Shown here piece after piece: positions 38,035 through 64,000 of a DNA stretch of 64,000 nucleotides; within the stretch, counting starts at the first letter, position 1; every line of letters starts with the position of its first letter. The notes below the pieces were generated by a model that did not search any database, was not told where the DNA came from, and saw only the letters and a list, made by a program, of their open reading frames with translations. The stretch comes from Dehalococcoidia bacterium (GTDB lineage Bacteria > Chloroflexota > Dehalococcoidia > UBA2979). The stretch covers positions 640,001 to 704,000 of the forward strand of contig OZ244720.1 in assembly GCA_965219085.1 (NCBI GenBank). The letters run 5' to 3'. The translations under genes were made by a program, and so were the position numbers.

Positions 38035-38121
38035 ATGACTCGCACAGCCAGACCCAGGCTCGCCATCCTGTTCGTCGCCCTGGCCGCGCTGCTCGCACTG
38101 TCCCGCAGGACTACAACGTGA
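38035..38121 (+). pseudogene. Truncated 5' end (RBS plus signal peptide) of a G10-like gene
   Basis: MTRTARPRLAILFVALAALLALS matches the G10 start MAHTARPRLAILFAALAALLALS. Leader similarity 37978-38104 vs 51007-51135 ends abruptly. Confidence 0.8.
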
Positions 38122-40796: not shown

Positions 40797-40813
40797 TGTC
40801 ACACCCGTGCCAC
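40797..40813 (+). promoter_or_regulatory. Possible direct-repeat pair upstream of G8
   Basis: TGTCAC-N5-TGCCAC with 11-bp period, resembling the site at 25525-25574. Confidence 0.35.
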
Positions 40814-40864
40814 ATCGGTCGTACACCATTGTCCTCTGTCGCAACACGCAGCGGAGGCACGACG

Positions 40865-43628: not shown

Positions 43629-43752
43629 GTGTATCGGGTCAAGGCGATCAACGCGGCGGGCGTGGTCGCTGGACCTGGCGAACGCCCTGGCCGGTCAGGA
43701 CGGGGTGCTGAGCTCGAGCCCGAACTGGCGCAGGGAAGTGGTCGCCAGGTGA
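43629..43752 (+). pseudogene. Fusion scar: FN3 fragment joined to the 3' end of the prodomain-like gene
   Basis: GTGTATCGGGTCAAGGCGATCAACGCGGCGGGCGTG (VYRVKAINAAGV) is directly followed, in another frame, by SLDLANALAGQDGVLSSSPNWRREVVAR*, near-identical to 14218-14304. Confidence 0.75.
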
Positions 43753-46700: not shown

Positions 46701-49700
46701 ACGGTTGACTGGACCGCCCCCGCCGACACCGGCGGCTCGGCCGTCACCGCCTACGACCTGCGCTATATCGAGAGCGCCGCCGCCGAAAGGTCAGGCGACA
46801 ACTGGAGCGTGGCGGAAAGCATCGGGACCGTCGGCAACCTGCAATACACCGTCACTGGTGTCACCGGAGGTGTCGGGTACGACCTGCAGCTGCGGGCGGT
46901 CAACGAGGACGGCCCCGGCCCCTGGTCCGCCGCGACCACGGGAGTGCCCATGATGAACGCGCGGCCCTGGTTCCCGGGGGGGGCGAACATATTTCGGTCC
47001 GTGGCCAAGAACTCTCGCGGGGGGGCACCCGTCGGCGCGCCGGTCACGGCCAGCGACCCCGAGGGCGACACCTTGATCTACACGGTCTCGGGCTTCCACG
47101 CGGACCTGTTCGCTATCGAGAGCCGGAGCGGGCAGATCCGGGTTGCGCCGGACACGACGGTAGGCAACGAGCCAGGGACGGTATACATCGTTGAGGCGAC
47201 TGCCGCCGACCCCTTTGGCCTCGGGGACCCCACCTTAGTCATCATCGCCGTCACCGACGAGAACGAGGCGCCGGTCGTGAGTGGTCTCGCCCGCGTGGAC
47301 TACGCCGAGCAGGGCACGGCCGACGTGGCGATCTACAGCGCGGAGGATCCAGAGCACGCCACGATCGCCTGGTCGTTGGAGGGGACGGACAGCGATCAGT
47401 TCCGCATTAGCGACAACGGCGTGCTGGGCTTCGTCGCGCCGCCCGACTTCGAGTCGCCGGCGGACGCGGGCGGGAACAACGAGTACCTGGTGCGAGTGCG
47501 GGTCTCCGACGGCCAGCAGAGCGACGCCCTGGATGTGACGGTGACCGTCACCAACGAAGAGGAGGCGGGGACGCTCACGCTGTCCTCGCAGCAGCCGCTG
47601 GTGGGCACCTTGCTGACCGCCACGCTCGACGACCCCGACGGCGACATCACGAGCCTGTCGTGGACATGGGAGCGCTCGCAGAACCGGAGCAACTGGAGCG
47701 AGATCGACGGCGCCACGACCGAGAGCTACACGCCCGCCGACGCCGACCTGGACCACTACCTGCGGGTGACGGCCTCGTATGACGACGGCGAGGGCGCCGG
47801 CAAGAGCGCGCAGGAGACCTCGGACGAGCCGACGCAGGCCGCGCCGGTGATGAACGAGCCCCCCGCGTTCGTCGCCCAGACCACGCCCCGCTCGATCGAG
47901 GAGAACTCGGCCGAAGGCACGCCCGTCGGCGACCCGGTCACGGCCACGGACCCCGACGCCGACACGCTGGCCTACACGCTCTCGGGCATCGATGCGGCCC
48001 TCTTCACCATCGAGGGCGGCAGCGGTCAGATTCGGGTCGGGCAGGGCGCCGTGCTGGACTACGAAGACTCCAACTCCTACTCCGTGACCGTCACCGCCGC
48101 CGACCCATCCACGGCCAGCGACAGCATCGCTGTCGACATCACCGTCAGGAACGTGAACGAGGCGCCGGAGGCGACCGGCGACACGGTCACGACCGACGAG
48201 GACACGCCGGTGACGATCGATGTCCTCATCAACGACAGCGACCCCGAGGGTGACGCCCTGACCGTCTCGGTGAGCACGCAGCCTGCCAACGGCGTCGCCG
48301 AGGTCGATGCCGCCAGCAACGAGATCACGTACACGCCCAAGGCCGACTACCACGGCGCGGACAGCTTCAGCTACGCCGTCTCCGACGGGAGCCTCTCCGC
48401 CGAGGCCACCGTCGCGGTGACCATCGACCCGCTCAACGACGCCCCCGAGTTCGCGGGGGCCACGGCCGGGCGCTCGGTCTCCGAGAGCGCGCAGGAAGGG
48501 GACGACGTCGGCGCGCCGGTCACCGCCAGCGACGTGGACGGCGACGAGCTCACCTACCGGCTGACCGGCGCCGCTGCCTCGGACTTCGAGATCGAGGAGC
48601 ACACTGCCCAGGTCACCGTGCGCGACGGGGTCGTGCTGGACGCCGCGAACCGGCCCGCCTACGCGGGCACGGTGATCGCAGAGGACGGGAACGGCGGGAC
48701 GGCGAGCATCGAGGTCACCATCACCGTGTCCAGCGCCGGCCCCACCGGCCCCGGCCCCGGCGGCGGGGGCGGCGGAGGCGGTGGTGGTGGTGGTGGCCCG
48801 TCGGGGCCCTCGCCGAGCGAGCTGGACTTCGAGTGGAACGTGAAGCGCGACCTCGAAGCGCTGGACGGCGGCCACGACACGCCGACCGGCGCCTGGTCGG
48901 ACGGCACAACCCTCTGGGTACTCGAGAACGGAGACGGCGCCGGCGACGCCATCTACGCCTACGACCTGAACACGGGCGAACGCCTGGAGGAGCGCGAGTT
49001 CGAACTCGACGAGCGCAACCGCGCACCGCGCGGCGTCTGGTCCGGCGGCACGGTCATCTGGGTCTCCGACAGCGGCCAGGACCGCCTGTTCGGCCATGAC
49101 CTCGAGACGGGCGAGCGCCTGCCGGAGCGCGACCTCGAGTTCGACGAGGACAACGGCGCCGCCCGCGGCATCTGGTCGGATGGCGAGAGGATGTGGGTGC
49201 TGGACCGGGACGAGGACAGCGTCTTCGTCTACGACCTCGGGAGCGGCGAGCTGGTGGCCGAGTACGCCCTCGACGACGCCAACGGGAGTCCCCACGGGAT
49301 CTGGTCGGACGGGGTGACGATCTGGGTCTCGGACCACGGCGCGAAGCGGCTCTTCGCCTACCGCCTCGAGGATGGGGCGCTCGTACGCAACAGCGAGGAG
49401 GAGTTCACGGAGCTGAGCAAGGCCTCCAACAACAGCCCGCGCGGCATCTGGTCGGACGGCGAGGTGATCTACGTGGCCGACGAGAGCGACGACAAGGTCT
49501 ACAGCTACAACATGCCCGACGCGATCGACGCGCGCCTCGCCTCACTGTCGCTGAGCGGCATCGAGATCGGGGAGTTCTCGGGGGACCGCACGGAGTACGA
49601 CGGCGTCGCCGCCGAGGGCGTGACGGAGACGACGGTCGAGGCGGAGGCGCTGCAGCGCCGCACGACCGTCCTCATCGAGCCGGCCGACGCCGGCGGCGAC

Positions 49701-50372
49701 GACACGAACGGCCACCAGCTGGCGCTGGAGGGCATCGACGCGATCACGGTCACCGTGACCTCGGCGGACGGCAGCCGCACGCGTGTCTACCGCGTGCGCC
49801 TGGGAGACCCGGACCGGCAGGCGACGCCCGATCCCTGGACGCACTGCTTGCGCGGCGACGTCGCCGAGGGCTTCAGCCTCGTCGTCTATGAGGGTGGCAG
49901 CGTCGAGGAGCTGGTCACCTGCGCGGAGAGTCGCGATGTCGTGGCCCTCTACGCGCTGCACGGCGGCGTCTACGTCTCGTACATCCTTGGAGCGCCGGGG
50001 TTCGTGAACCAACCATTCGCCGAGCTGTTCGCCGATGGTGTCCCCCCGGTCATGCCGCTGGTCGCTGGGAGCAGCGGACCGCCATCAGCGGACCCGAACC
50101 AAGGCGACGGCGCCCTGTTGCCGTGGCCGGAGTGCCTGCGCGGCGAGATCGCCGCGGGCTTCAGCCTCGTCATCTACGAGGGCGGTAGCGTCGATGATCT
50201 CGTGGCCTGCGCGCAGAGCCTGGCCGTCACGGCCCTCTACACGCTCGACGAGGGCGAGTTCGTCTCCTACATCCTCGGAGCGCCCGAGTTCGTGAACCGC
50301 AAGTTCAGGGAGTTGTTCCCGCACGGCGTTCCGCCCCTCACGCCGCTGGTCGCCGCAAGCGACGGGCGGTAG
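43749..50372 (+). CDS. Giant secreted protein G9 (2207 aa): FN3, PPC-like domains, kexin-like S8 peptidase with P-domain, FN3, cadherin repeats, C-terminal module
   Basis: GTG 43749 by homology to the G4 start. Motifs VTVVDDG, THGTRVAG, FSAGNG and GGTSAAAP; paralog of G4 lacking the spondin domain. Confidence 0.92.
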   Translation: MRWPALLAACVLLGVMAAPGLARAQRPPPVAAPTIDSVTRGDESLIVDWTAPASVDAADISAYDLRSIESDAPDKAAGLWTVVLDAWSAGDLRYLLSGLTNDTQYDVQVRAVTMGRLGDWSATATGAPADHSGATAGATALALDSTATGVIESGDDEDFFKIVLTSAADLWLYTTSNLDTKGALYDSGGGHLKTHKGGGGWPGQLWDFEIRAELEAGTYYVSVGVNHSKVTGPYTLHARTATAPGGSLADATAITLGAPAPGRIDAADDRDVFKIVLTSAADLWIVSSGSMDLVGQLLDADGVVIAENDDSSLAYSRYNFGIWREVEAGTYYIRVRALLYGWGIETYTLHARTVTPPGGSIAGAVDIDLLQTAARLNAATDEHYFALTIAATEYIYMHARVSHTLFRPNDPASLAAEVFDQAGNPVDIYWIPHSAFIEDGRSFFSFAIFGKLSAGTNYLKISSPSGKPGPYLLTILDDTAYTSFINECTAKETPVSDPLYGCQWHLRNSGQYPGGAGQDINVEDVWKTNMGAGVNVTVVDDGMHFEHEDLTDNADPSRNRNYSTRASIFNPFETHGTRVAGLIAARDNNIGMRGVAPQATIYGYNLLADSTAANAADAMFRIGEGSTTGDEDTAVSNNSWGPSHLFGPAPASAAWELAVQNGVTSGNHGKGVFYVFSAGNGGTFTSANLNGYANYYAVTAVCAVNYDDLRSSYSELGANLWVCAPSNEVVADLPAIATTDNGDQYTPNFGGTSAAAPIVSGVAALLRSADDSLTWRDLKLILAASARKNNPRNTGWAQGALEYGSDSERYFFNHKYGFGMVDAGAAVALAGDWTKVPALREISAESADKNLEIPDRPSGGAPITVRSRVTVDNHVGFVEFVEINVTFDHASFNDLEVQLVSPSGARSRLTYANGHSRVPVEQTIRFGSARHLGENAAGTWTLHITDHRPTRTGTLDGWSLTVYGHGFSPGRPDIGMVVPGIRALTVDWTAPADTGGSAVTAYDLRYIESAAAERSGDNWSVAESIGTVGNLQYTVTGVTGGVGYDLQLRAVNEDGPGPWSAATTGVPMMNARPWFPGGANIFRSVAKNSRGGAPVGAPVTASDPEGDTLIYTVSGFHADLFAIESRSGQIRVAPDTTVGNEPGTVYIVEATAADPFGLGDPTLVIIAVTDENEAPVVSGLARVDYAEQGTADVAIYSAEDPEHATIAWSLEGTDSDQFRISDNGVLGFVAPPDFESPADAGGNNEYLVRVRVSDGQQSDALDVTVTVTNEEEAGTLTLSSQQPLVGTLLTATLDDPDGDITSLSWTWERSQNRSNWSEIDGATTESYTPADADLDHYLRVTASYDDGEGAGKSAQETSDEPTQAAPVMNEPPAFVAQTTPRSIEENSAEGTPVGDPVTATDPDADTLAYTLSGIDAALFTIEGGSGQIRVGQGAVLDYEDSNSYSVTVTAADPSTASDSIAVDITVRNVNEAPEATGDTVTTDEDTPVTIDVLINDSDPEGDALTVSVSTQPANGVAEVDAASNEITYTPKADYHGADSFSYAVSDGSLSAEATVAVTIDPLNDAPEFAGATAGRSVSESAQEGDDVGAPVTASDVDGDELTYRLTGAAASDFEIEEHTAQVTVRDGVVLDAANRPAYAGTVIAEDGNGGTASIEVTITVSSAGPTGPGPGGGGGGGGGGGGGPSGPSPSELDFEWNVKRDLEALDGGHDTPTGAWSDGTTLWVLENGDGAGDAIYAYDLNTGERLEEREFELDERNRAPRGVWSGGTVIWVSDSGQDRLFGHDLETGERLPERDLEFDEDNGAARGIWSDGERMWVLDRDEDSVFVYDLGSGELVAEYALDDANGSPHGIWSDGVTIWVSDHGAKRLFAYRLEDGALVRNSEEEFTELSKASNNSPRGIWSDGEVIYVADESDDKVYSYNMPDAIDARLASLSLSGIEIGEFSGDRTEYDGVAAEGVTETTVEAEALQRRTTVLIEPADAGGDDTNGHQLALEGIDAITVTVTSADGSRTRVYRVRLGDPDRQATPDPWTHCLRGDVAEGFSLVVYEGGSVEELVTCAESRDVVALYALHGGVYVSYILGAPGFVNQPFAELFADGVPPVMPLVAGSSGPPSADPNQGDGALLPWPECLRGEIAAGFSLVIYEGGSVDDLVACAQSLAVTALYTLDEGEFVSYILGAPEFVNRKFRELFPHGVPPLTPLVAASDGR
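48813..50372 (+). repeat. Conserved C-terminal module copy 5 (chimeric: G2-type body, G1-type end)
   Basis: Ends FPHGVPPLTPLVAASDGR* like G1 and is followed by G1-type intergenic DNA. Confidence 0.95.
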
Positions 50373-51065: not shown

Positions 51066-54000
51066 ATGGCCCACACAGCCAGACCCAGGCTCGCCATCCT
51101 CTTCGCCGCCCTGGCCGCGCTGCTCGCACTGTCCCTCTCCGGCGCGCCGGCCCAGGCCCAGGACGGCTCCGTTCCCGGGAAGCCCACGGGACTCTCCAGC
51201 GAGGCGTCCCACGACTCGGTCAGCCTGACCTGGGACGATCCCGGCGACGGCAGCATCACCCACTACCAGGTCTTCCGGCGCGACCGCGACGTCCACGCCG
51301 CCGGCGAGTTCGTCACCGTCACGGAGCACACGGGCTCGGCGGCAACGAGCTACACCGACGACACCGTGGAACCCGAGCGGCGCTACGTGTACCGGGTCAA
51401 GGCCGTCAACGCCCACGGCGCGAGCACGTGGTCGGGTCACCGCAGGGCCAGCACCCCGGCGGCCACTCCCACCCCGACGCCGGCACCTGAGCCGGAGCCG
51501 ACTCCGGACCCCGCAGACCTGGACCCCGCCGACCTGGCCCCCAGCGGCCTCGAGGCCAGCCTGGCGGAGAACCGGGTCACCCTCACCTGGACCGCCCCCG
51601 CCGAGGACGCCGCTTCCGTGACCGGGTACGAGGTCCTGCGCGCCCAGGGCAGCGCCGCGCTGACCACCCTGGCGGCCGACACCGGCAACACCGACACCAC
51701 CTACACCGACTCTGGCGTGACCGGAGACCTGGACGGCTACCGCTACCAAGTCAAGGCGCTGCGCGGCGGGGACGCCAGCCAGGGCTCCAACGTGGCCGGC
51801 GTCATCCCGTCCGCCCACGCCGGTGCCATCGTTCCGCTCGCCGACGTCACCCTGATCAGCAATCTAGTGCTGAACGACGGCACGAACGACCTGACCCTCA
51901 CGCCGACCTTCGCCACGGACACGACGAGCTACGCGGCCTCGGTCGGCGGCGCCGTCTCGCAGATCACGGTGACGCCGACGAAGAGCGACACGGACGCCTC
52001 GGTGGAGTATCTCGACGCGAAGGACGCGGCGATCGCCGACGCCGACGGGACGGCCACCGGCCAGCAGGTGGATCTCGCGGTGGGCACGACCACGATCAAG
52101 GTCGAGGTCACCGCCGGGGACGCGATGACGACCGAGACCTACACGGTCGTCGTGACCCGCGCGGCGACGAGGCCCGCTCCTCCATCGGGGAAGGCGTGGG
52201 TCGAAGTCTGGAGCGATGACTTCGACGGTGACGTTCTGGACGCCACGAAGTGGCTTCCACGACGCGAGTCGCAGAATCTGAAAACCAGGACACACCATGG
52301 AAACACGATCTACTACCGTCGGGAAACAGACAACATAAGTGTCGCAGACGGCAAACTGGTCTTGAAGAACACTCAGAGGCGTCTCAGCGACACATCGAGT
52401 GAAGTGTTGACCGCGTCGATCTACACCCAGGACACCTACCGAAGAAAGTACGGGTACTTCGAGGCCAGTCTGAGGATCGCTCCGACCGCGGATGGCATCC
52501 ATACGGGATTCTGGATGCAGAGCCTGCTTTCGGGTTCCCATTCCGAGAATGGCGGTGTCGAGGGAGCTGCCGACGGTGGGGAAATCGACATCCTGGAGTC
52601 CGCGCTTATCAGGGACAGATTCTATCATGCATTGCATTGGGATAATGGCGGGTCAAGAAGTCGCACAAGTGCGTCCAGGCGGGTCGATGTTACCTTGCAT
52701 GACGGCGAGTACCACGTCTACGCGGTGGAGTGGAGTGCGGGTCGGTACAGGTTCTATGTTGACGGAAAGTTGACCTGGACGTATACGGGGGAAGGCGTAT
52801 CCGACGGAGACGAGTACATCATATTGGCGACAAATGTGAGCTGGGCCGGCGGCAATGCGCACACGGGTGATTTCCCGGTCGAGGCTCTGGTCGATTGGGT
52901 CAGGGTATACGAGTTGCAGGACAGCACGTCCGTCGATGCGCAAGCGGCGGAGCCCGGCTTCGGGACCCTCGGGGGGAGTGTTGCGCCGTCTGTCGCCCCC
53001 CCGCGGCTTTCGGCGCCGCCGCCTGTCGTTCCCGGTACCGGGAACGCCTTGAGCCGTGGGTCCCGCCCGGCCATCTCGTCAGTGGAGTTCGCCTACGATC
53101 CTGACTACGCCAGCTACGATCCTCACTACGCCGGCCCGGACGACGACACTTATCCGCTGGCCTGGACGGTGAGCGTCGAGGTGAACTTCGATCAGGACAT
53201 CGATGTCCAGGATCTGGAGGACGGAGGCCCGCGCCTGGAACTGGACATCGGCGGCGTGCCGAAACAGGCCCTCTACTACAGCAAATCGTCCCGCGCGATT
53301 GTCTTCTTCTACAGAATCCAGGACGGCGACGAAGACATGGACGGCATTTCGATCGGCGCGGACAAGCTGGCTCTCAACGGCGCCAGCATCGTCGGGACAA
53401 CAGGCACGGACGCCGTCTTGGACCACGCCGCCGTGCCCGACGATGCCGGCCACAAGGTGGACGGCGTGCGGCCGGTCCTCCAAGCCGCCGAGACATCGAC
53501 GGACGGCGCGGCGATCGTCCTCACCTACGATGAGGCTCTTCAACCCACCATGAACCTGTCCAAGGAGCAGCAGCGCACGACGGCTACTCCGTATGACTAC
53601 ACGGTCAGTGTCGACGGCGTTCCCCGCGGGGTCAGCGACGTTTCAGCGAGTGGTAGCACCGTGACGCTGGAGCTCGAATCCGCGGTGACGGCCGGCCAGA
53701 CGGTCGCCGTGAGCTACCGCGAACCGAGCGTTCACGACGATACGAGGGCGGTGCAGAACCTGCGCGGCACCGACGCGGCGAGCTTCACGAACCGTACGGT
53801 GACCGTCGCCGACGACGACCCGCAGGTGACCGTCGGCTTCGAGCACTCGGCCTACAGCGTTGCCGAGGGCGCCAGCGTCGCGGTCAGCGTGGTGCTGAGC
53901 GCGGACCCCGAGCGCACCGTCACCATCCCGCTGACCAGCACCAACCAGGGCGGCGCGTCGGCTGCGGACTTCTCCGGAGTGCCCGCGAGTCTGGAGTTCT

Positions 54001-57000
54001 CGACAACGGCCATGTCGCGGACGTTTGCCTTCGCGGCTGCTGATGACGACGTCGATGACGACGGTGAGGGCGTCACGGTGGGCTTCGGGACGCTGCCTGC
54101 CGGGGTGAACGCGGGTACGCCCGCGACGGCTGCTGTGTCGATCATTGACGGTGATGTGCCGACGGTGTCGGTGAGCTTCGGGTCTGGTCCGTACTCGGTG
54201 GACGAGGGCGAAACGGTGACGGTGACGGTGTCGCTGGACGAGGATCCTGAGCGCACGGTGGTGATCCCGCTGACCACGACGCTGGCGGGCGGCGCGTCGG
54301 CTGCGGACTTCTCCGTGCCGGCGAACGTGACGTTCGCGGCGGGCGAGACGTCCAAGACGTTCGAGTTCGATGCTGCTGACGACGACGTCGATGACGACGG
54401 TGAGGGCGTCACGGTGGGCTTCGGGACGCTGCCCGCCGGGGTGAACGCGGGCACGCCCGCGATGGTTGCTTTCGAGATCGGCGACGATGACGTGCCGACG
54501 GTGTCGGTGAGCTTCGTGGCGTCGACGTACAGCGTCGCCGAGGGCGGCTCGGTGACGGTGACGGTGTCGTTGAGCGCTGATCCTGAACGCACCGTGGTGA
54601 TCCCGCTGACCACGACGCTGGGGGGCGGCGCGTCGGCTGCGGACTTCTCCGTGCCGGCGAACGTGACCTTCGACGCAGGCGACACGTCCCAGGCGTTCAC
54701 CTTCGCGGCTGCTGACGACGGGGAGGATGATGACGGTGAGGGCGTCACGGTGGGCTTCGGGACGCTGCCTGCCGGGGTGAACGCGGGTACGCCCGCGACG
54801 GCTGCTGTGTCGATCATTGACGGTGATGTGCCGATTGTGTCGGTGAGTTTCGGGTCTGGTTCGTACTCGGTGGACGAGGGCGGCTCGGTGACGGTGACGG
54901 TGTCGTTGAGCGCTGATCCTGAACGCACCGTGGTGATCCCGCTGACCACGACGCTGGGGGGCGGCGCGTCGGCTGCGGACTTCTCCGTGCCGGCGAACGT
55001 GACCTTCGACGCAGGCGACACGTCCCAGGCGTTCACCTTCGCGGCTGCTGACGACGGGGAGGATGATGACGGTGAGGGCGTCACGGTGGGCTTCGGGACG
55101 CTGCCTGCCGGGGTGAACGCGGGTACGCCCGCGACGGCTGCTGTGTCGATCATTGACGATGATGTGCCGATTGTGTCGGTGAGTTTCGGGTCTGGTTCGT
55201 ACTCGGTGGACGAGGGCGGCTCGGTGACGGTGACGGTGTCGTTGAGCGCTGATCCTGAACGCACCGTGGTGATCCCGCTGACCACGACGCTGGGGGGCGG
55301 CGCGTCGGCTGCGGACTTCTCCGTGCCGGCGAACGTGACGTTCGCGGCGGGCGAGACGTCCAAGACGTTCGAGTTCGATGCTGCTGACGACGGGGAGGAT
55401 GATGACGGTGAGGGCGTCACGGTGGGCTTCGGGACGCTGCCCGCCGGGGTGAACGCGGGTGCGCCCGCGATGGTTGCTTTCGAGATCGGCGACGATGACG
55501 TGCCGATTGTGTCCAACAGATCCCCGGCCTTCAGCGAGGGATCCTCGACGACGCGGGACGTGCCCGAGAACAGCAGCGCGGGTACCGCCCTCGGCACGGC
55601 GGTCGCCGCCTCGGACGCAGAGGGCGACACGCTGACCTACGCCCTCGGTGGGACGGACGCCGCCTCGTTCGACTTCAGCACGGCCACCGGGCAGATCTCG
55701 ACCGGGTCGGGCGTGACCTACGACCACGAGGCAAAGGCGACCTACACGGTCACGGTGACGGTGGACGACGGCAACGGCGGCGCCGCCGGCATCGACGTGA
55801 CCATCAACGTCACGGACGAGCCCGAGCCGCCGAACGCACCCGCCGCGCCAACGGTGTCAAGGACGGCGGACGCGAACGACAGCCTCGACGTGAGCTGGAC
55901 CGCGCCCGCCAACGACGGCAGGCCGGCCCTCAAGCACTACGACATCCAGTATCGGGAAGGCGGCGGCGCCTGGGAAACCGGGCCCCAGACCCAGACCGGC
56001 ACGACCGCGAAGATCACCTCCCTGAACGCGGGAACCTCGTACGAGGTGCAGGTGCGCGCCGCCAACGACGAAGGTAATGGCGCCTGGTCCCCGGCGGGAA
56101 CGGGTTCGACCAACGCCGCGCCGGTCTTCGACGACGGCGAGGAGACGACGCGTGAGGTGGCGGAGAACACGGCCTCGGGCGCGGACATCGGCGCGGCCGT
56201 CGCGGCCACGGACGCGGACAACGACACGCTCAGCTACTCGCTCGGCGGGACGGACGCAGCCTCGTTCGCCATCGTCTCGACCAGCGGCCAGATCCAAACG
56301 AAGGCGGCCCTCGACTACGAGGAGGACGACGAGTACTCGGTGACGGTCACGGTCACGGATGGCAGTGGCGGCGAAGCCAGCATCGACGTGACCATCGACG
56401 TCACGGACGAGGACGAGCCGCCGTCGAAGCCCGAGGCGCCGACGGTGACGGGAGCGGGCCCGAGCAGCGTCACGGCGACCTGGCTGGCGCCGGCCAACGC
56501 GGGCAAGCCGGACATCAGCGACTACGACGTGCAGTACCGGCAGCAGGGCGGCACCGCCTGGACCGACTGGACCCACACCAGCACGGACACCTCGGCGACG
56601 ATCACCGGCCTCAGCGCGAACACCTCCTACGAGGTGCAGGTGCGGGCCACCAACGACGAGGGCACGAGTAACTGGTCCGACTCGGACAGCGGGGCGACCT
56701 CGACCAAGCCGGTGGTGACCCTGTCGCTGTCGTCCCACTCGATCGTGGAAGGCGGAGTCACCACGGTGACGGGAACGGTCTCGCCCGCATCCGCGACGCC
56801 GTTCACGGTGACGGTCTCGGTGACGCCCGTGGCCCCGGCGGTGGCGGCCGACTTCACGCCGAGCGCGAACGCCAACCTGACCTTCGCCGCGAACGCGACC
56901 GCGAGCACCGGCGGCGTAACGATCACGGCGACGGCGAACACGGTACACACGGAGGACAAGACGCTGACGGTGTCGGGCGCGACCACGGCGGCGGCGGTGA

Positions 57001-60000
57001 CGGCGCCGGCCAACGTCACGCTGACGGTCGCAGACGACGACGCCCCGTCGTGGACCGTGGAGGTGGGCTCCGCCTCGATCGCAGAGGACGCGGGCTCCAC
57101 GACGCTGACCGTGAGCACGGGCGGCGTGAGCTTCGCCGACGACCAGACGATCACGCTCGATCTCGGGGGCACGGCCACGGTGACGGACGACTACACGGTC
57201 AGTCCCGCGACGCTCACGCTGAAGGCGGGCAACAGCTCGGCCATGACGACCATCACCGCGGTCGACGACGCACTGGACGACGAGGCCGAGACGATCGTGA
57301 TCGCGGCCATGCACGGCGGCGCCCAGGTGGGCGCCTCGCGGACCATCACGATCACCGACGACGATGCCGCCAACAGGGCGCCCACCTTCGCCGAAGGCGC
57401 CTCGACGACGCGCGACGTGGCGGAGAACACGGCGTCGGGCCAGAACGTGGGCGCTGCGGTCGCCGCGACGGACCCGGACAGCGACGCACTGACCTACACC
57501 CTCGGCGGCACGGACGCGGTGTCGTTCGACATCGATTCGGCGAGCGGCCAGCTCCAGACCGCGACCGGGACGGTCCTCGACTACGAGGCCAGGACGAGCT
57601 ACTCGGTGACGGTCACGGTCACGGACAGCAAGGGCGGCAGCGCCGCCATCGATGTGACCATCAACGTCACGGACGAGGACGAGCCGCCGTCCGCGCCCAC
57701 GGAGCTGAGCGGGCTAGTGCTGAACGACGGCGCGAACGACCTGACCCTCACGCCGACCTTCGCCACGGACACGACGAGCTACGCGGCCTCGGTCGGCGGC
57801 GCCGTCTCGCAGATCACGGTGACGCCGACGAAGAGCGACACGGACGCCTCGGTGGAGTATCTCGACGCGAGAGACGCGGCGATTACCGACGCCGACGGGA
57901 CGGCCACCGGCCAGCAGGTGGATCTCGCGGTGGGCACGACCACGATCAAGGTCAAGGTCACCGCCGGGGACGCGATGACGACCGAGACCTACACGGTCGT
58001 CGTGACCCGCGCGGCGACGAGGCCCGCTCCTCCATCCGGGAAGGCGTGGGTCGAAGTCTGGAGCGATGACTTCGACGGTGACGTTCTGGACGCCACGAAG
58101 TGGCGTCCACAACGCGAGTCGCAGGATCTGAGTACCAGGACACACCATGGAAACACGATCTACTACCGTGGGGAAACAGACAACGTAGGTGTCGCAGACG
58201 GCAAACTGGTCTTGAAGAACACTCAGAGGCGTCTCAGCGCCACATCGAGTGAAGTGTTGACCGCGCGGATCTCGACCATGGACATCTACCACAGAAAGTA
58301 CGGGTACTTCGAGGCCAGTGTGAGGATCGCTCCGACCGCGGATGGCATCGATACGGTATTCTGGATGCAGGGCCCGCTTACGCACCGCCATTCCGAGAAT
58401 GGCGGTGTCGAGGGAGCTGCCGACGGTGGGGAAATCGACATCCTGGAGTCCTCGTTTATCAGGGACGGATTCTATCATGCATTGCATTGGGATTATGGCG
58501 GGTCAAGAAGGCGCAAAAGTGCGTCCGAGTGGGTCGATGTTACCTTGCATGATGGCGAGTACCACGTCTACGCGGTGGAGTGGAGTGCGGATCGGTACAG
58601 GTTCTATATTGACGGAAAGTTAACCTGGACCTATACGGGGGAAGGCGTATCCGGCGGAGACGAGTACATCGTATTGTCGACAGGTGTGAGCTGGGCCGGC
58701 GGCAATGCGCACACGGGTGATTTCCCGGTCGAGGCTCTGTTCGATTGGGTCAGGGTATATGAGTTGCAGGACAGCACGTCCGTCGATGCGCAAGCGGCGG
58801 AGCTCGGCTTTGGGACCCTCGGGGGGAGTGTTGCGCCGTCTGTCGCCCCCCCGCTTTCGGCGCCGGCGCCTGTCGCCCCCCCGCTTTCGGCGCCGCCGCC
58901 TGTCGCCCCCTCCCGGCTTTCGGCGCCGCCGCCTGTCGTTCCCGGTACCGGGAACGCCTTGACCCATGAGTCCCCCCCGGCCATCTCGTCGGTGGAGTTC
59001 GCTTACGATCCTGACTACGACGGCGATCCTGACTTCGACGGCCCGGACGACGACACTTATCCGCTGGCCTGGACGGTGAGCGTCGAGGTGAAGTTCGATC
59101 GGGACATCCATGTCCAGGATCTGGAGAACGGAGGCCCGCGCCTGGAACTGGACATCGGCGGCGTGCCCAAACAGGCCCTCTATTACAGCAAATCGTCCCG
59201 CGCGATTGTCTTCTTCTACAGAATCCAGGACGGCGACGAAGACATGGACGGCATTTCGATCGGCGCGGACAAGCTGGATCTCAACGGCGCCAGCATCGTC
59301 GGGACAACAGGCACGGACGCCGTCTTGGGCCACGCCGCCGTGCCCGACGATGCCGGCCACAAGGTGGACGGCGTGCGGCCGGTCCTCCAAGCCGCCGAGA
59401 TATCGACGGACGGCGCGACGATCGTCCTCACCTACGACGAGGCTCTTCAGACCACCATCAACAACCCGTCTAACCCCAAGAAGCGGCGCACGACGGCTAC
59501 TCCGTATCGCTACACGGTCAGCGTCGACGGCGTTCCCCGCGGGGTCAGCGACGTTTCAGCGAGTGGCAGCACCGTGACGCTGGAGCTCGAATCCGCGGTG
59601 ACGGCCGGCCAGACGGTCGCCGTGAGCTACCGCGAACCGAGCGTTCACGACGATAGGAAGGCGGTGCAGAACCTGCGCGGCACCGACGCGGCGAGCTTCA
59701 CGAACCGTACGGTGACCGTCGCCGGCGACGACACGGCGGGGGTGGTGGTGGTCCCGACGGTGGTGTCGGTGGCCGAGGGCGGCGCGGCGGGCAGCTACAC
59801 GGTGGTGCTGGCCACGCAGCCGCCGGGGACGGTGACGGTGACGGTGGGCGGCGCCGGCGACGACGTCGCCGCGGAGCCCGCCGCGCTGACGTTCACGGCC
59901 TCGACGTGGGACACCGCGCAGACGGTGACGGTGACCGCGGTCGACGACAGCGTCGCCGAGGGCGAGGAGACGGCGACGCTGACCCACGCGGTGAGCGGCT

Positions 60001-63000
60001 ACGGGGCCGTCACCTCCGCCGACAGCGTGACGGTGTCCATCACCGACGACGACGGAAACACCCCGCCCACGGCCTCCGCGTCCGTCACGCCGGACGCCCC
60101 GGCCGAGTTGACACCCGAGATGAAGGTCGAGGTGCTCGGCGGCAACACGGTGTCGCTGGACGGCGGCGGGAACGACCCCGACGTTGGCGAAGTCCTGAGC
60201 TACGCCTGGACCAGCGACGGAGGCGGCACGTTCGCCGACGCGGCGGCGGCGGACACCACGTGGACCGCGCCGGCGGCCACGGCCGACGAGCAGACGGTTA
60301 CGCTCACCCTCACCGTCAGCGACAGCGCCTCGGCCACGGCCGAGGCGAGCGTCGAGGTAACGGTGGCGGACAACGTCCCGCTGACGGCCAGCTTCGACAC
60401 CATTCCCGTCATGCCGCACGCAGGGAACAACTTCGCCGTGAGGATCCTGTTCAGCGAACGGATCCGCGCAGGGCTGACCGACTTCAGGAATCACGCAGTC
60501 GAGGTGACGAACGGCACGGTGTACGACGGAAGACGAGTGGATGGCCGGCGCGACCTGCTGGAGCTCGAGATCGACCCGGACAGCGCCTCGGCGGACGTGA
60601 CCATCGTGCTCGCCCCGAGCCGGGCCTGCCCGCAGAGCAACTCGATCTGTACCTACGCCGGAAAGCAGCTCTCGGCCGAGCTGCGGGGGGTCGTCGAGTC
60701 CACCAACACCCCGGTCTTCAGCGAAGGGGCCACGGCCACGCGCGAGGTCGCCGAGAACACTGCGGCGGACACCGACATCGGGGGGGCGGTGACGGCCACC
60801 GACGTGGACAACGACACGCTCAGCTACTCGCTCGGCGGGACGGACGCAGCCTCGTTCGCCATCGTCTCGACCAGCGGCCAAGTCCAGACGAAGGCGGACC
60901 TCGACCACGAGACGAAGTCGAGCTACGCGGTCACGGTCACGGTCACGGATGGCAAGGGCGGCAGCGCCAGCATCGAGGTGACCATCAACGGCACGGACGA
61001 GGACGAGCCGCCGTCGAAGCCCGAGGCGCCGACGGTGACGGGAGCGGGCCCGAGCAGCGTCACGGCGACCTGGCTGGCGCCGGCCAACGCGGGCAAGCCG
61101 GACATCAGCGACTACGACGTGCAGTACCGGGAGGCAGGCACGACCGGGTCGTGGAGTGACGGGAGCCACACCGGCACGGACACCTCGGCGACGATCACGG
61201 GCCTCAGCGCGAACACCTCCTACGACGTGCAGGTGCGGGCCACCAACGACGAGGGCACGAGCGACTGGTCCGACTCGGGCAGCGGGGCGACCTCCACCAA
61301 GCCGGTGGTGACCCTGTCGCTGTGGTCCGACTCGATCGCGGAAGGCGGAGTCACCACGGTGAGGGGAACGGTCTCGCCCGCATCCGCGACGCAGTTCACG
61401 GTGACGGTCTCGGTGACGCCCGTGGCCCCGGCGGTGGCGGCCGACTTCACGCTGAGCGCGAACACCAACCTGACCTTCGCCGCGAACGCGACCGCGAGCA
61501 CCGGCATCGTAACGATCACGGCGACGGCGAACACGGTACACACGGAGGACAAGACGCTGACGGTGTCGGGCGCGACCACGGCGGCGGCGGTGACGGCGCC
61601 GGCCAACGTCACGCTGACGGTCGAAGACGACGACGCCCCGTCGTGGACCGTGGAGGTGGGCTCCGCCTCGATCGCAGAGGACGCGGGCTTCACGGCCGTG
61701 ACCGTGAGCACGGGCGGCGTGACCTTCGCCGACGACCAGACGATCACGCTCGATCTCTCGGGCACGGCCACGGAAACGGACGACTACACGGTCAGTCCCG
61801 CGACGCTCACGCTGACGGCGGGCAACAGCTCGGCCATGACGACCATCACCGCGGTCGACGACGCACTGGACGACGAGGCCGAGACGATCGTGATCGCGGC
61901 CATGCACGGCGGCGCCCAGATCGGCGCCTCGCGGACCATCACGATCACCGACGACGATGCCGCCAACAGGGCGCCCACCTTCGCCGAAGGCGCCTCGACC
62001 ACGCGCAAGGTGGCGGAGAACACGGCCTCGGGCGAGGACATCGGCGCGCCGGTCTCGGCCACGGACGCGGACAGCGACGCACTGACCTACACCCTCGGCG
62101 GCACGGACGCGGCGTCGTTCGACATCGATCCGGCGAGCGGCCAGCTCCAGACGAGTGCGGCCCTCGACCACGAGACGGCGCCGAGCCACACGGTGACCGT
62201 GACCGCGGACGACGACAAGGGCGGGACCGCCACCATCTCCGTGACCATCGAGGTCACGAACGAGACTGAGCCGCCGGAAGAGCCCGGCGCGCCCGACAAC
62301 GTGCGGGCATTGTCGGGCAACGCCGAGCTCGTCGTCACCTGGGGCGAACCCAACGACGGCGGCAGCGCCATCACCGAGTACACCCTGCAATGGAAGTCCG
62401 GCGGCGAGAGCTTCAGCTCGTCCCGGCAGAGGACGATTGCCGCGCCGTCACGCAGCGACACGATCCCGTCTCTGACCAACGGCACCGAGTACGCGGTGCG
62501 GGTTAAGGCCACGAACACCCACGGCGACAGCGACTGGTCCGTCGAGGCGACGGGCACCCCCCGTTCCAGCATCACCACCGGTGGCGGGGGCGGCGGTGGT
62601 GGTGGCCCGTCGGGGCCCTCGCCGAGCGAGTTGGACTTCGAGTGGAACGTGAAGCGCGACCTCGAAGCGCTGGACGGCGGCCACGACACGCCGACCGGCG
62701 CCTGGTCGGACGGCACCGTCCTCTGGGTACTCGAGAACGGAGACGGCGCCGGCGACGCCGTCTACGCCTACGACCTGAACACGGGCGAACGCCTGGAGGA
62801 GCGCGAGTTCGAACTCGACGAGCGCAACCGCGCGCCGCGCGGCGTCTGGTCCGGCGGCACGGTCATCTGGGTCTCCGACAGCGGCCAGGACCGCCTCTTC
62901 GGCCATGACCTCGAGACGGGCGAGCGGCTGCCGGAGCGCGACCTCGAGCTCGGCGAGCGCAACGGCGACGCCCGCGGGATCTGGTCCGATGGTGAGACGA

Positions 63001-64000
63001 TGTGGGTGCTCGATGGCGGCAAGGACAGCGTCTTCGCCTACGACCTCGGGAGCGGCGAGCTGGTGGCGGAGTACGCCCTCGACGACGCCAACGGCGACCC
63101 TCACGGGATCTGGTCGGACGGGGTGACGATCTGGGTCTCGGACCACGGCGCGAAGCGGCTCTTCGCCTACCGCCTCGAGGATGGGGAGCTCGTGCGCAAC
63201 AGCGAGGAGGAGTTCACGGAACTGAGCAAGGCGAGCAACAACAGTCCGCGGGGCATCTGGGGGAACGCCGACGTGATCTACGTGGCCGACGAGAGCGACG
63301 ACAAGGTCTACAGCTACAACATGCCCGACGCGATCGACGCGCGGCTCGCCTCGCTCACGCTCAGCGGCATCGAGATCGGGGAGTTCTCGGGGGACCGCAC
63401 GGAGTACGACGGCGTCGCCGCCGAGGGCGTGACGGAGACGACGGTCGAGGCGGAGGCGCTGCAGCGCCGCACGACCGTCCTCATCGAGCCGGCCGACGCC
63501 GGCGGCGACGACACGAACGGCCACCAGCTGGCGCTGGAGGGCATCGACGCGATCACGGTCACCGTGACCTCGGCCGACGGCAGCCGCACGCGTGTCTACC
63601 GCGTGCGCCTGGGAGACCCGGACCGGCAGGCGACGCCCGATCCCTGGACGCACTGCTTGCGCGGCGACGTCGCCGAGGGCTTCAGCCTCGTCGTCTATGA
63701 GGGTGGCAGCGTCGAGGAGCTGGTCACCTGCGCGGAGAGTCGCGATGTCGTGGCCCTCTACGCGCTGCACGGCGGCGTCTACGTCTCGTACATCCTTGGA
63801 GCGCCGGGGTTCGTGAACCAACCATTCGCCGAGCTGTTCGCCGATGGTGTCCCCCCGGTCATGCCGCTGGTCGCTGGGAGCAGCGGACCGCCATCAGCGG
63901 ACCCGAACCAAGGCGACGGCGCCCTGTTGCCGTGGCCGGAGTGCCTGCGCGGCGAGATCGCCGCGGGCTTCAGCCTCGTCATCTACGAGGGCGGTAGCGT
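51066..64000 (+). CDS. Giant secreted protein G10 (>4300 aa, runs off the window): FN3 x2, two [beta-sandwich-GH16-Ig-like-SwmB-like] blocks, Calx-beta-like repeats, cadherin/FN3, PKD-like, C-terminal module
   Basis: Absent from the ORF track because it has no stop in the window. AGGAGG RBS, ATG 51066 and a signal peptide. Frame checked at the GH16 (WSDDFDG, KYGYFEA, EIDILE at 52581 and 58431) and at the C-module (62622). Confidence 0.92.
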   Translation, partial: MAHTARPRLAILFAALAALLALSLSGAPAQAQDGSVPGKPTGLSSEASHDSVSLTWDDPGDGSITHYQVFRRDRDVHAAGEFVTVTEHTGSAATSYTDDTVEPERRYVYRVKAVNAHGASTWSGHRRASTPAATPTPTPAPEPEPTPDPADLDPADLAPSGLEASLAENRVTLTWTAPAEDAASVTGYEVLRAQGSAALTTLAADTGNTDTTYTDSGVTGDLDGYRYQVKALRGGDASQGSNVAGVIPSAHAGAIVPLADVTLISNLVLNDGTNDLTLTPTFATDTTSYAASVGGAVSQITVTPTKSDTDASVEYLDAKDAAIADADGTATGQQVDLAVGTTTIKVEVTAGDAMTTETYTVVVTRAATRPAPPSGKAWVEVWSDDFDGDVLDATKWLPRRESQNLKTRTHHGNTIYYRRETDNISVADGKLVLKNTQRRLSDTSSEVLTASIYTQDTYRRKYGYFEASLRIAPTADGIHTGFWMQSLLSGSHSENGGVEGAADGGEIDILESALIRDRFYHALHWDNGGSRSRTSASRRVDVTLHDGEYHVYAVEWSAGRYRFYVDGKLTWTYTGEGVSDGDEYIILATNVSWAGGNAHTGDFPVEALVDWVRVYELQDSTSVDAQAAEPGFGTLGGSVAPSVAPPRLSAPPPVVPGTGNALSRGSRPAISSVEFAYDPDYASYDPHYAGPDDDTYPLAWTVSVEVNFDQDIDVQDLEDGGPRLELDIGGVPKQALYYSKSSRAIVFFYRIQDGDEDMDGISIGADKLALNGASIVGTTGTDAVLDHAAVPDDAGHKVDGVRPVLQAAETSTDGAAIVLTYDEALQPTMNLSKEQQRTTATPYDYTVSVDGVPRGVSDVSASGSTVTLELESAVTAGQTVAVSYREPSVHDDTRAVQNLRGTDAASFTNRTVTVADDDPQVTVGFEHSAYSVAEGASVAVSVVLSADPERTVTIPLTSTNQGGASAADFSGVPASLEFSTTAMSRTFAFAAADDDVDDDGEGVTVGFGTLPAGVNAGTPATAAVSIIDGDVPTVSVSFGSGPYSVDEGETVTVTVSLDEDPERTVVIPLTTTLAGGASAADFSVPANVTFAAGETSKTFEFDAADDDVDDDGEGVTVGFGTLPAGVNAGTPAMVAFEIGDDDVPTVSVSFVASTYSVAEGGSVTVTVSLSADPERTVVIPLTTTLGGGASAADFSVPANVTFDAGDTSQAFTFAAADDGEDDDGEGVTVGFGTLPAGVNAGTPATAAVSIIDGDVPIVSVSFGSGSYSVDEGGSVTVTVSLSADPERTVVIPLTTTLGGGASAADFSVPANVTFDAGDTSQAFTFAAADDGEDDDGEGVTVGFGTLPAGVNAGTPATAAVSIIDDDVPIVSVSFGSGSYSVDEGGSVTVTVSLSADPERTVVIPLTTTLGGGASAADFSVPANVTFAAGETSKTFEFDAADDGEDDDGEGVTVGFGTLPAGVNAGAPAMVAFEIGDDDVPIVSNRSPAFSEGSSTTRDVPENSSAGTALGTAVAASDAEGDTLTYALGGTDAASFDFSTATGQISTGSGVTYDHEAKATYTVTVTVDDGNGGAAGIDVTINVTDEPEPPNAPAAPTVSRTADANDSLDVSWTAPANDGRPALKHYDIQYREGGGAWETGPQTQTGTTAKITSLNAGTSYEVQVRAANDEGNGAWSPAGTGSTNAAPVFDDGEETTREVAENTASGADIGAAVAATDADNDTLSYSLGGTDAASFAIVSTSGQIQTKAALDYEEDDEYSVTVTVTDGSGGEASIDVTIDVTDEDEPPSKPEAPTVTGAGPSSVTATWLAPANAGKPDISDYDVQYRQQGGTAWTDWTHTSTDTSATITGLSANTSYEVQVRATNDEGTSNWSDSDSGATSTKPVVTLSLSSHSIVEGGVTTVTGTVSPASATPFTVTVSVTPVAPAVAADFTPSANANLTFAANATASTGGVTITATANTVHTEDKTLTVSGATTAAAVTAPANVTLTVADDDAPSWTVEVGSASIAEDAGSTTLTVSTGGVSFADDQTITLDLGGTATVTDDYTVSPATLTLKAGNSSAMTTITAVDDALDDEAETIVIAAMHGGAQVGASRTITITDDDAANRAPTFAEGASTTRDVAENTASGQNVGAAVAATDPDSDALTYTLGGTDAVSFDIDSASGQLQTATGTVLDYEARTSYSVTVTVTDSKGGSAAIDVTINVTDEDEPPSAPTELSGLVLNDGANDLTLTPTFATDTTSYAASVGGAVSQITVTPTKSDTDASVEYLDARDAAITDADGTATGQQVDLAVGTTTIKVKVTAGDAMTTETYTVVVTRAATRPAPPSGKAWVEVWSDDFDGDVLDATKWRPQRESQDLSTRTHHGNTIYYRGETDNVGVADGKLVLKNTQRRLSATSSEVLTARISTMDIYHRKYGYFEASVRIAPTADGIDTVFWMQGPLTHRHSENGGVEGAADGGEIDILESSFIRDGFYHALHWDYGGSRRRKSASEWVDVTLHDGEYHVYAVEWSADRYRFYIDGKLTWTYTGEGVSGGDEYIVLSTGVSWAGGNAHTGDFPVEALFDWVRVYELQDSTSVDAQAAELGFGTLGGSVAPSVAPPLSAPAPVAPPLSAPPPVAPSRLSAPPPVVPGTGNALTHESPPAISSVEFAYDPDYDGDPDFDGPDDDTYPLAWTVSVEVKFDRDIHVQDLENGGPRLELDIGGVPKQALYYSKSSRAIVFFYRIQDGDEDMDGISIGADKLDLNGASIVGTTGTDAVLGHAAVPDDAGHKVDGVRPVLQAAEISTDGATIVLTYDEALQTTINNPSNPKKRRTTATPYRYTVSVDGVPRGVSDVSASGSTVTLELESAVTAGQTVAVSYREPSVHDDRKAVQNLRGTDAASFTNRTVTVAGDDTAGVVVVPTVVSVAEGGAAGSYTVVLATQPPGTVTVTVGGAGDDVAAEPAALTFTASTWDTAQTVTVTAVDDSVAEGEETATLTHAVSGYGAVTSADSVTVSITDDDGNTPPTASASVTPDAPAELTPEMKVEVLGGNTVSLDGGGNDPDVGEVLSYAWTSDGGGTFADAAAADTTWTAPAATADEQTVTLTLTVSDSASATAEASVEVTVADNVPLTASFDTIPVMPHAGNNFAVRILFSERIRAGLTDFRNHAVEVTNGTVYDGRRVDGRRDLLELEIDPDSASADVTIVLAPSRACPQSNSICTYAGKQLSAELRGVVESTNTPVFSEGATATREVAENTAADTDIGGAVTATDVDNDTLSYSLGGTDAASFAIVSTSGQVQTKADLDHETKSSYAVTVTVTDGKGGSASIEVTINGTDEDEPPSKPEAPTVTGAGPSSVTATWLAPANAGKPDISDYDVQYREAGTTGSWSDGSHTGTDTSATITGLSANTSYDVQVRATNDEGTSDWSDSGSGATSTKPVVTLSLWSDSIAEGGVTTVRGTVSPASATQFTVTVSVTPVAPAVAADFTLSANTNLTFAANATASTGIVTITATANTVHTEDKTLTVSGATTAAAVTAPANVTLTVEDDDAPSWTVEVGSASIAEDAGFTAVTVSTGGVTFADDQTITLDLSGTATETDDYTVSPATLTLTAGNSSAMTTITAVDDALDDEAETIVIAAMHGGAQIGASRTITITDDDAANRAPTFAEGASTTRKVAENTASGEDIGAPVSATDADSDALTYTLGGTDAASFDIDPASGQLQTSAALDHETAPSHTVTVTADDDKGGTATISVTIEVTNETEPPEEPGAPDNVRALSGNAELVVTWGEPNDGGSAITEYTLQWKSGGESFSSSRQRTIAAPSRSDTIPSLTNGTEYAVRVKATNTHGDSDWSVEATGTPRSSITTGGGGGGGGGPSGPSPSELDFEWNVKRDLEALDGGHDTPTGAWSDGTVLWVLENGDGAGDAVYAYDLNTGERLEEREFELDERNRAPRGVWSGGTVIWVSDSGQDRLFGHDLETGERLPERDLELGERNGDARGIWSDGETMWVLDGGKDSVFAYDLGSGELVAEYALDDANGDPHGIWSDGVTIWVSDHGAKRLFAYRLEDGELVRNSEEEFTELSKASNNSPRGIWGNADVIYVADESDDKVYSYNMPDAIDARLASLTLSGIEIGEFSGDRTEYDGVAAEGVTETTVEAEALQRRTTVLIEPADAGGDDTNGHQLALEGIDAITVTVTSADGSRTRVYRVRLGDPDRQATPDPWTHCLRGDVAEGFSLVVYEGGSVEELVTCAESRDVVALYALHGGVYVSYILGAPGFVNQPFAELFADGVPPVMPLVAGSSGPPSADPNQGDGALLPWPECLRGEIAAGFSLVIYEGGS
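51864..53810 (+). repeat. ~1.95-kb intragenic duplication (copy 2 at ~57714-59720) containing GH16
   Basis: Offset 5850 bp, rising to 5910 after a 30-bp repeat expansion. Confidence 0.95.
53812..55505 (+). repeat. Five tandem 336-bp (112-aa) Calx-beta-like repeats
   Basis: Anchor CGTCACGGTGGGCTTCGGGACGCTGCC at 54071, 54407, 54743, 55079 and 55415. Motifs VSF...YSV.EG and DD..DDDGE. Confidence 0.9.
56120..57560 (+). repeat. ~1.4-kb intragenic duplication (copy 2 at ~60710-62150): cadherin-FN3-Calx-like block
   Basis: Offset ~4590 bp, near-identical DNA. Confidence 0.9.
62622..64000 (+). repeat. Conserved C-terminal module copy 6 (truncated by window end)
   Basis: PSELDFEWNVKRD... to CLRGEIAAGFSLVIYEGGS at the window edge. 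Confidence 0.95.

Follow-up and report, generated by a model that had tools for sequence, protein, structure and literature searches.

Replacement-rich divergence of two GH16 domains duplicated within one giant surface protein of a Dehalococcoidia bacterium

When a catalytic domain has been duplicated together with its neighbours inside a single polypeptide, and the catalytic part has since changed its residues fastest, does the excess of replacements record selection for divergent functions or a loss of constraint on a redundant copy? This question is raised by a stretch of 64,000 nucleotides, hereafter the window, from a Dehalococcoidia bacterium (assembly GCA_965219085.1, contig OZ244720.1, positions 640,001 to 704,000). 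An open reading frame (ORF) for a giant secreted multidomain protein, at 51066..63998, extends past the window end and, like all the parts of it mapped below, reads on the (+) strand. From the ORF list, the translation, Pfam and the match to protein entry P0144 of a 3.3-Mb contig, it comprises 4311 aa inside the window and 4371 aa in full. It bears two domains of glycoside hydrolase family 16 (GH16). A first-pass annotation, made from the letters alone, had noticed that these two domains differ almost only by amino-acid changes and had put this down to strong diversifying selection.

The protein opens with a signal-like peptide (51066-51161, recognised by reading the sequence rather than by a predictor), and its further domains are fn3, cadherin-like beta-sandwich, GH16 (twice), SWM repeat, Calx-beta (seven times), cadherin, PKD and a conserved C-terminal region. 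In the 4311-aa query Pfam marked five fn3 stretches, three of PF12733, two of Glyco_hydro_16 (PF00722), two of SWM_repeat, seven of Calx-beta and four of cadherin, besides PKD. A blastn self-match and the repeat families, D10, D11 and D18 in the case of copy 1, revealed an internal segmental duplication of about 2 kb within this one ORF: module copy 1 lies at 51864..53822 and copy 2 at 57714..59735, with 91.65% identity across 2025 alignment columns. Each copy consists of a cadherin-like beta-sandwich (PF12733; 51864..52190, partner 57714-58040), a GH16 domain of 244 aa, and a proline-rich linker with downstream domains (SWM repeat, TIGR02059) that was co-duplicated with GH16 (52923..53822, partner 58773-59735). 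The GH16 domain of copy 1 (type 1) occupies 52191..52922 and that of copy 2 (type 2) 58041..58772. No third GH16 copy was detected in the window by tblastn.

Codon alignment of 52191-52920 with 58041-58770 (243 codons) gave 36 codons with non-synonymous differences, 4 with only synonymous ones and 203 that are identical. The 50 base differences are distributed over codon positions 1, 2 and 3 as 23, 18 and 9, and the stretch offers non-synonymous and synonymous sites in a neutral ratio of 566:163, or 3.5:1. Replacement cluster 1, at 52416..52442 (domain residues 76-84), reads S-I-Y-T-Q-D-T-Y-R in copy 1 and R-I-S-T-M-D-I-Y-H in copy 2, alternate residues being changed; cluster 2, at 52500..52538 in the codon alignment and in an alignment to subfamily GH16_3, comprises H104D, G106V and residues 111-116. 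The remaining contrasting peptides are SLLSGSH/GPLTHRH, IILATN/IVLSTG and SRR/SEW. Codon by codon, these clusters proved to be plain substitutions, and compensated frameshifts were ruled out. GEIDILE is kept at 52578-52598 and at 58428-58448, so that the catalytic motif E-I-D-I-L-E, of the beta-bulge type ExDxxE, can be read in both translations (52581..52598 and 58431..58448). The adjacent beta-sandwiches, 51864-52190 and 57714-58040, differ at 4/109 residues and 7/327 bases. These counts agree with the first-pass annotation in every particular: its tally of about 36 non-synonymous and about 4 synonymous codons was exact, its four contrasting peptides are all present, its motif is intact, its beta-sandwich is almost unchanged, and its neutral ratio of roughly 3:1 was about right.

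Substitution rates were then compared along the module. By the NG86 method, the GH16 pair shows 6.5 synonymous differences over 163.0 sites and 43.5 non-synonymous differences over 566.0 sites, corresponding to a synonymous divergence (dS) of 0.041, a non-synonymous divergence (dN) of 0.081 and a dN/dS ratio (omega) of 1.98 (binomial p = 0.049). For the remaining 408 codons of the duplicated module the same method returned a dS of 0.0445, a dN of 0.0446 and an omega of 1.00, and for the beta-sandwich alone an omega of 0.49. Silent divergence is uniform along the module (0.034 in the beta-sandwich, 0.041 in GH16, 0.055 and 0.031 downstream), and the corresponding dN values are 0.017, 0.081, 0.042 and 0.033. 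Expressed as densities, replacements occupy 44/566 sites in GH16 and 39/908 in the flanks (p = 0.007), while silent changes are alike (6/163 and 14/316 sites; p = 0.81).

A pairwise GY94 maximum-likelihood (ML) codon model, written for this analysis and run with three treatments of codon frequencies, gave an omega for GH16 of 2.22 with F3x4 (likelihood ratio test, LRT, against omega = 1: 3.80, p = 0.051), 2.32 with F61 (LRT 4.32, p = 0.038) and 2.79 with equal frequencies (p = 0.011). For the flanks omega was 0.60-0.62, which does not differ from 1, and for the whole module 1.04-1.09. A single omega for GH16 and flanks was rejected (LRT 5.97, p = 0.015). In a further tally every changed codon was scored as a single event, which discounts multi-nucleotide mutations. 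Under this scheme 4/40 GH16 events are synonymous against an expectation of 27.5% (one-sided P = 0.0066), and when only codons with a single hit are retained the figure is 4/31 against the same expectation (one-sided P = 0.046).

Most of the window is taken up by an island of giant surface-protein genes, and these supplied internal controls for the calculation. Eleven other paralogous segment pairs of the island had omega values of 0.25-0.84, compared with 1.35 for the GH16 module overall. Among 293 sliding windows of 243 codons drawn across the 12 paralogous segment pairs, the top six (omega 1.87-2.19) all fell within the GH16 module, GH16 being the highest, and the 272 windows outside the module had a median of 0.54 and a 95th percentile of 1.22. 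The GH16 domain is the island's extreme for omega, and the margin is not wide.

Assignment of the domains to GH16 is well founded. The PF00722 match reaches 79.5 bits, where the curated cut-off is 22, the ExDxxE motif is in place, and an AlphaFold2 (AF2) model of copy 1 (pLDDT 91.0, pTM 0.90, below 50 only at loop 118-122) has the beta-jelly-roll fold. With this model Foldseek returned GH16 enzymes for all of the top Protein Data Bank (PDB) matches listed (TM 0.65-0.75), led by the laminarinases 4DFS (E 7e-21, TM 0.74) and 4CRQ (TM 0.75), and a HMMER sequence search of the PDB matched 37 distinct chains, best 6JH5 at 3e-16. No equivalog-level match was obtained in NCBIfam, where kappa-carrageenase (42 bits, cut-off 350) and BglS (28 bits, cut-off 300) remained below threshold. 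The closest characterised enzymes belong to GH16_3. According to PMC6827312, specificity in GH16 is dictated by active-site loops, and members of GH16_3 show the pattern WPA...WXX...WPX; of the loops bordering the cleft, that of WPX is said to lie along the negative subsites and His155-His163 (4CTE numbering) to face the positive ones. Ligand contacts of the laminarinase SCLam are given in PMC7961093.

Positions were transferred through a HMMER alignment to 4CRQ, with a numbering offset of 22 derived from the position of E142S. Set against the GH16_3 pattern as PMC6827312 gives it, WPA corresponds to H104-T105-G106 in copy 1 and to D-T-V in copy 2, and the motif is missing; WXX is present as W108-M-Q; and WPX corresponds to G125-A126-A127, the motif being absent from what is here a longer, low-confidence loop (111-130). 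The equivalent of His-155, H149, is present and nearly invariant in a 53-sequence GH16 alignment, and the His155-His163 loop maps to residues 149-160. Lacking WPA and WPX, the window domains are GH16 but not typical GH16_3. They share with the GH16_3 laminarinases (ZgLamC, 4CRQ/4CTE; LamCAT, 6JH5; the Thermotoga enzymes 4DFS and 3AZX) the jelly-roll, ExDxxE, the conserved His and the W of WXX, at TM 0.72-0.75, but are only 24-30% identical to them and, unlike small secreted laminarinases, sit twice within a 4371-aa surface protein. Their nearest kin form a sub-clade in which GH16 is fused to SWM-repeat/Calx-beta/fn3 scaffolds (P0114, P0118, P0125, P0128-P0130, P0146 and others; 45-59% identity over the whole domain). 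WPA and WPX are missing across this whole sub-clade, which has in common with the window domains the motifs I-A-P-T-A-D-G-I-H-T-A-F-W and L-S-T-G and the co-occurrence with SWM_repeat (PF13753) and Calx-beta. At columns that the sub-clade conserves, both window copies depart by W42Y, A130G and N230V, copy 2 by H104D and copy 1 by S213A and G215N. The sub-clade is rare: in a set of 1.84 billion proteins, a threshold of E <= 1e-30 leaves 23 cluster representatives, where E <= 0.001 admits 7631.

The 53-sequence alignment has 19 columns that are invariant or nearly so, and none of the 36 changed positions falls in them; E131 and E136 never vary in it and D133 hardly does. Since ExDxxE and all family-invariant residues are kept in both copies, each copy is probably an active enzyme or, at the least, a folded one. 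Changed residues are spaced two apart far more often than expected (12 i/i+2 pairs against 5.1, P = 0.0014), and no such surplus exists at lag 1 (6 against 5.2) or lag 3 (2 against 5.1); by this periodicity one beta-strand face is being replaced and the opposite face kept. In GH16_3 enzymes the strand that contains H104D and G106V holds WPA, and residues 111-116 lie at the start of the WPX loop. By homology alignment to 4CRQ, and with the motifs as PMC6827312 defines them, 10/36 changes (104, 106, 111, 112, 114-116, 152, 157 and 159) lie in the WPA-equivalent strand and two cleft-bordering loops; another four (138, 139, 143 and 205) follow closely on the catalytic strand or belong to a stretch that the paper names as possibly shaping the cleft. 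From this alignment the changes would appear to line the cleft. When the changes were polarised with 24 sub-clade domains, taking columns at least 90% conserved within this roughly 50%-identical sub-clade, derived states were found in both copies: H104D, A106V and V234F in copy 2, and S213A and G215N, common to the related protein P0001, in copy 1.

Relatives of the module were compared as protein only, and the counts that follow are differing over aligned residues. Between copies 1 and 2 they are 36/244 in GH16, 4/109 in the beta-sandwich and 15/159 downstream. A third version is made up of two ORFs, P0060 and P0001, that share one 9738-bp contig and are apparently split by a frameshift. It differs from copy 1 at 32/173, 4/109 and 10/145 positions and from copy 2 at 42/173, 4/109 and 13/145, again for GH16, beta-sandwich and downstream region. 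P0001 covers 28 of the sites at which the window copies differ, and matches copy 1 at 15, copy 2 at 5 and neither at 8; it departs from the window copies at 19/145 sites where these agree, as against the 8/28 differing sites at which it matches neither (p = 0.049). P0145, a 3448-aa protein with another domain order, carries a GH16 domain that is clearly of type 2: it differs from copy 2 at 5/244 residues in GH16 (98% identical) and at 8/109 in the beta-sandwich and 10/159 downstream (flanks 92.7-93.7% identical). A separate internal duplication in P0114, about 50% identical to the window copies, shows 53/237 differences in GH16 and 13/186 downstream (p = 1e-5).

From the protein comparisons we discern three distinct GH16 types in near-identical scaffolds, one of them conserved across two proteins, and in the P0114 lineage, independently, GH16 appears again as the fastest-diverging part of a duplicated module. 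A search of the genome contigs with the 653-aa module gave 31 pattern matches, none of which was confirmed as a relative; an alignment-based scan of the same contigs, with very general patterns, gave at least 80 loci at 27-36% identity. As an observation in its own right, the third GH16 version has an out-of-frame tail past domain residue ~33, and may be a frameshifted, possibly inactivated copy or the product of a sequencing error. All in all, there is a genuine excess of replacements, one that is specific to the catalytic domain and recurs at the protein level.

The explanation that we favour, and to which we give a little better than an even chance, is that the GH16 types diverged in function under selection in a recent burst; selection, rather than relaxed constraint, would then lie behind the excess, and the two copies would differ in specificity. 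Several results weigh against it. The bootstrap 95% interval of the NG86 estimate for GH16 runs from 0.98 to 6.7 and so dips below 1, and the likelihood profile, which spans 0.4-1.1 for the flanks, spans 1.0 to about 5 for GH16 and so reaches 1.0. Two or three base changes, of the kind that the first-pass annotation had remarked on, occur in 9/40 changed GH16 codons where 3.2 would be expected if the 50 differences were random (P = 0.0011), and multi-nucleotide mutations inflate omega; dN/dS is inflated, too, among very recent lineages. The sliding windows outside the module reach a maximum of 1.85, and high values at low dS occur between 14310-15158 and 43758-44606, in the region N-terminal to the subtilase domains (omega 1.4-1.76), and between 56709-57437 and 61302-62030, in a non-enzymatic part of the GH16 giant ORF itself (omega 1.85). 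Changes are not enriched in loops of the AF2 model (17/36 lie in strands, against 125/244 residues overall; p = 0.72), and columns conserved in the sub-clade are avoided weakly (8/36 changed positions against 77/208; p = 0.09). The comparison of radical with conservative replacements was uninformative, with a mean BLOSUM62 score of -0.47 against -0.46 for random non-synonymous mutations. The P0114 pair and the window pair show no tendency to change at shared sites (9/35 against 44/202; p = 0.66), though by eye the same loops looked variable. Finally, the GH16 region was selected post hoc because it looked extreme. With p-values of about 0.05 and a region so chosen, the evidence is not to be called strong. 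What survives of the claim of strong diversifying selection is an omega whose point estimates exceed 1 (1.98-2.3); the word strong does not, given p = 0.038-0.051 and an interval extending to 1.0.

Much of this would also follow if purifying selection had been relaxed on a redundant young catalytic duplicate, with a true omega of about 1 that noise and multi-nucleotide mutations lift to about 2. We consider this unlikely but a serious contender. It is in keeping with an interval for GH16 that includes 1.0, with the ML omega of the whole module, with a replacement spectrum equal to that of random mutations, with the missing loop enrichment and weak avoidance of conserved columns, with the excess of multi-hit codons, and with the other low-dS windows of the island at omega 1.4-1.85. 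It sits poorly with a GH16 omega above that of the co-duplicated flanks, with the invariant and catalytic residues all being untouched, and with the lag-2 periodicity, which amounts to continued constraint on one strand face. Nor would it readily explain why the type-2 domain is 98% identical in P0145 when the flanks are less so, why the pattern of GH16 as the fastest part recurs in P0114, or why the ORF is intact through 4371 aa.

Alternatively, the GH16 types could be old, with their age masked by gene conversion that erased silent and flank differences while selection protected the type-defining replacements; the high dN/dS would then stem from a lowered dS and not from a recent burst, and conversion together with selection can indeed raise the dN/dS of paralogs. 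Along single paralog pairs of the island dS varies from 0.019 to 0.544 (28 non-overlapping 243-codon windows), mosaic pairs including 10342-13435 with 47250-50367 and 11829-13259 with 62573-64000; a mosaic of this sort is what repeated conversion or recombination between the giant genes is expected to leave. Across island windows dS and omega are uncorrelated (rho = -0.06). In both P0145 and P0060 the flanks combine copy-1 with copy-2 states, and taken with the mosaic this means that the low dS of the module may date its last homogenisation and not the origin of the GH16 types. Conversion would also suit the beta-sandwiches, which within the protein are closer to each other (4/109) than that of copy 2 is to P0145 (8/109) despite the near-identity of the GH16 domains in the latter pair, and the three third-position differences that lie inside codons also bearing replacements. 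We nonetheless judge such masking of old types rather improbable: GH16 dS is no higher than flank dS (0.041 and 0.0445), there is no leftover island of high silent divergence, and replacements that stand ~20 bp apart on average would call for very short conversion tracts. Targeted hypermutation by a diversity-generating retroelement (DGR), or an assembly or sequencing artefact in the repeat, would produce clustered differences and multi-base codon changes, yet it is highly improbable here. Adenine, 24% of the sequence, stands at 17/50 differences in copy 1 and 10/50 in copy 2, without any adenine-specific pattern; the differences extend across 730 bp and not over a variable region of ~100 bp; and Pfam identified no reverse transcriptase in any of the 9 large ORFs to which it was applied, small ORFs lying outside that scan. 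On these grounds a DGR target was rejected, and the window GH16 resembles DGR targets in belonging to a surface protein, in its carbohydrate-binding type of fold and in its variation at exposed positions without being a member of that class. Against an artefact, type-2 residues recur in the independent assembly of P0145 and many type-1 residues in P0060/P0001.

Under the favoured explanation of selection-driven divergence, a three-domain module (beta-sandwich, GH16 and SWM-repeat region) would have been recently duplicated or re-homogenised within one giant secreted surface protein. Silent sites would afterwards have diverged equally along it, with replacements in GH16 accruing about twice as fast as silent changes, about twice as fast as replacements in the flanks overall and nearly five times as fast as those in the beta-sandwich. 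On a scaffold that stayed near-identical, the types may thereby have been adjusted in their exposed strand faces and in the loops bordering the cleft, presumably to suit different glycan substrates or ligands. Such a history would resemble neofunctionalisation or subfunctionalisation after duplication, with its transient omega above 1, in that the window pair is likewise recent (dS ~0.04) and replacement-rich, has kept its catalytic residues and has changed in both copies. It would differ from that of usual duplicate enzymes in that both copies belong to one polypeptide, the co-duplicated scaffold acts as an internal neutral or purifying control, and conversion among the sister genes appears to be rampant. 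The first-pass annotation had called the pattern unusual for a carbohydrate-active enzyme (CAZyme), and this holds in one sense, that the catalytic domain evolves faster than the scaffold domains, likewise in the independent relative P0114. Among the literature matches listed, nothing specific on positive selection in GH16 was found. The arms race over host glycans or with phage or immune systems that had been proposed as the cause of the pattern is pure speculation.

Some other features of the giant ORF deserve mention. A 20-aa insertion (58854-58913) lengthens the proline-rich linker that follows the second GH16 domain and consists of L-S-A-P-P-P-V-A-P-like units; P0145 has more repeats of this unit, and linker length is therefore variable. 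Between the two modules, at 53823-55582, stand five tandem Calx-beta repeats of 336 nt (112 aa), 62-81% identical to the reference copy, and at least seven repeats of the 112-aa kind precede the GH16 module of P0145. The GC content at third codon positions is 0.70 in both GH16 domains, as compared with 0.92-0.95 in the adjoining parts of the ORF, with 0.93 for the flanks of type 1, and with 0.83 in the part of the module downstream; this atypical GH16 codon usage could reflect a foreign origin of the domain or weaker codon selection.

The island itself runs on one strand and comprises ORFs at 3-6161, 6544-13452, 14301-22778, 26597-37792, 40796-43495, 43629-50372 and 51066->63998, all on the (+) strand and coding for giant secreted multidomain proteins. 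These are built on common fn3, cadherin and Big_9 scaffolds and, 40796-43495 excepted, have the same kind of C-terminal region, which in the giant genes is under purifying selection (omega 0.25-0.36). They differ in their heads: arylsulfotransferase, subtilase S8 with P-domain (twice), Spondin_N and GH16 (twice). Several of the proteins end in a domain of ~80-96 aa with two conserved Cys (49833-50365; 63642-63886, which runs past the window end). In the GH16 protein the copy of this domain had no Pfam or NCBIfam match and no usable match in the ESM Atlas; the domain may be an anchoring or sorting module. Mid-island, at 37716-40055, an ORF for a hybrid sensor (GAF, HATPase_c, response-regulator receiver, Trans_reg_C) shares ~77 nt with the end of the giant ORF before it.

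If constraint was merely relaxed, the pair is an ordinary young duplicate. If the excess is adaptive, the locus would be a natural experiment, in which two catalytic domains at ~4% silent divergence have come to differ by 36 replacements with scaffold controls built in, and the pair could reveal the specificity-setting residues of an uncharacterised GH16 sub-clade that is without the laminarinase WPA and WPX. The enzyme heads, and not the scaffolds, would then be the fast-evolving part of giant modular surface proteins. A broader proposal, which we regard as doubtful at present, is that GH16 domains serve as exchangeable, selection-diversified heads for glycan recognition or cleavage on recombining giant surface proteins, where diversifying selection might hold the types (1, 2 and that of P0001) apart while conversion homogenises scaffold and silent sites; this would make the locus a system of surface variation founded on a CAZyme fold, with the P0114 lineage independently alike.

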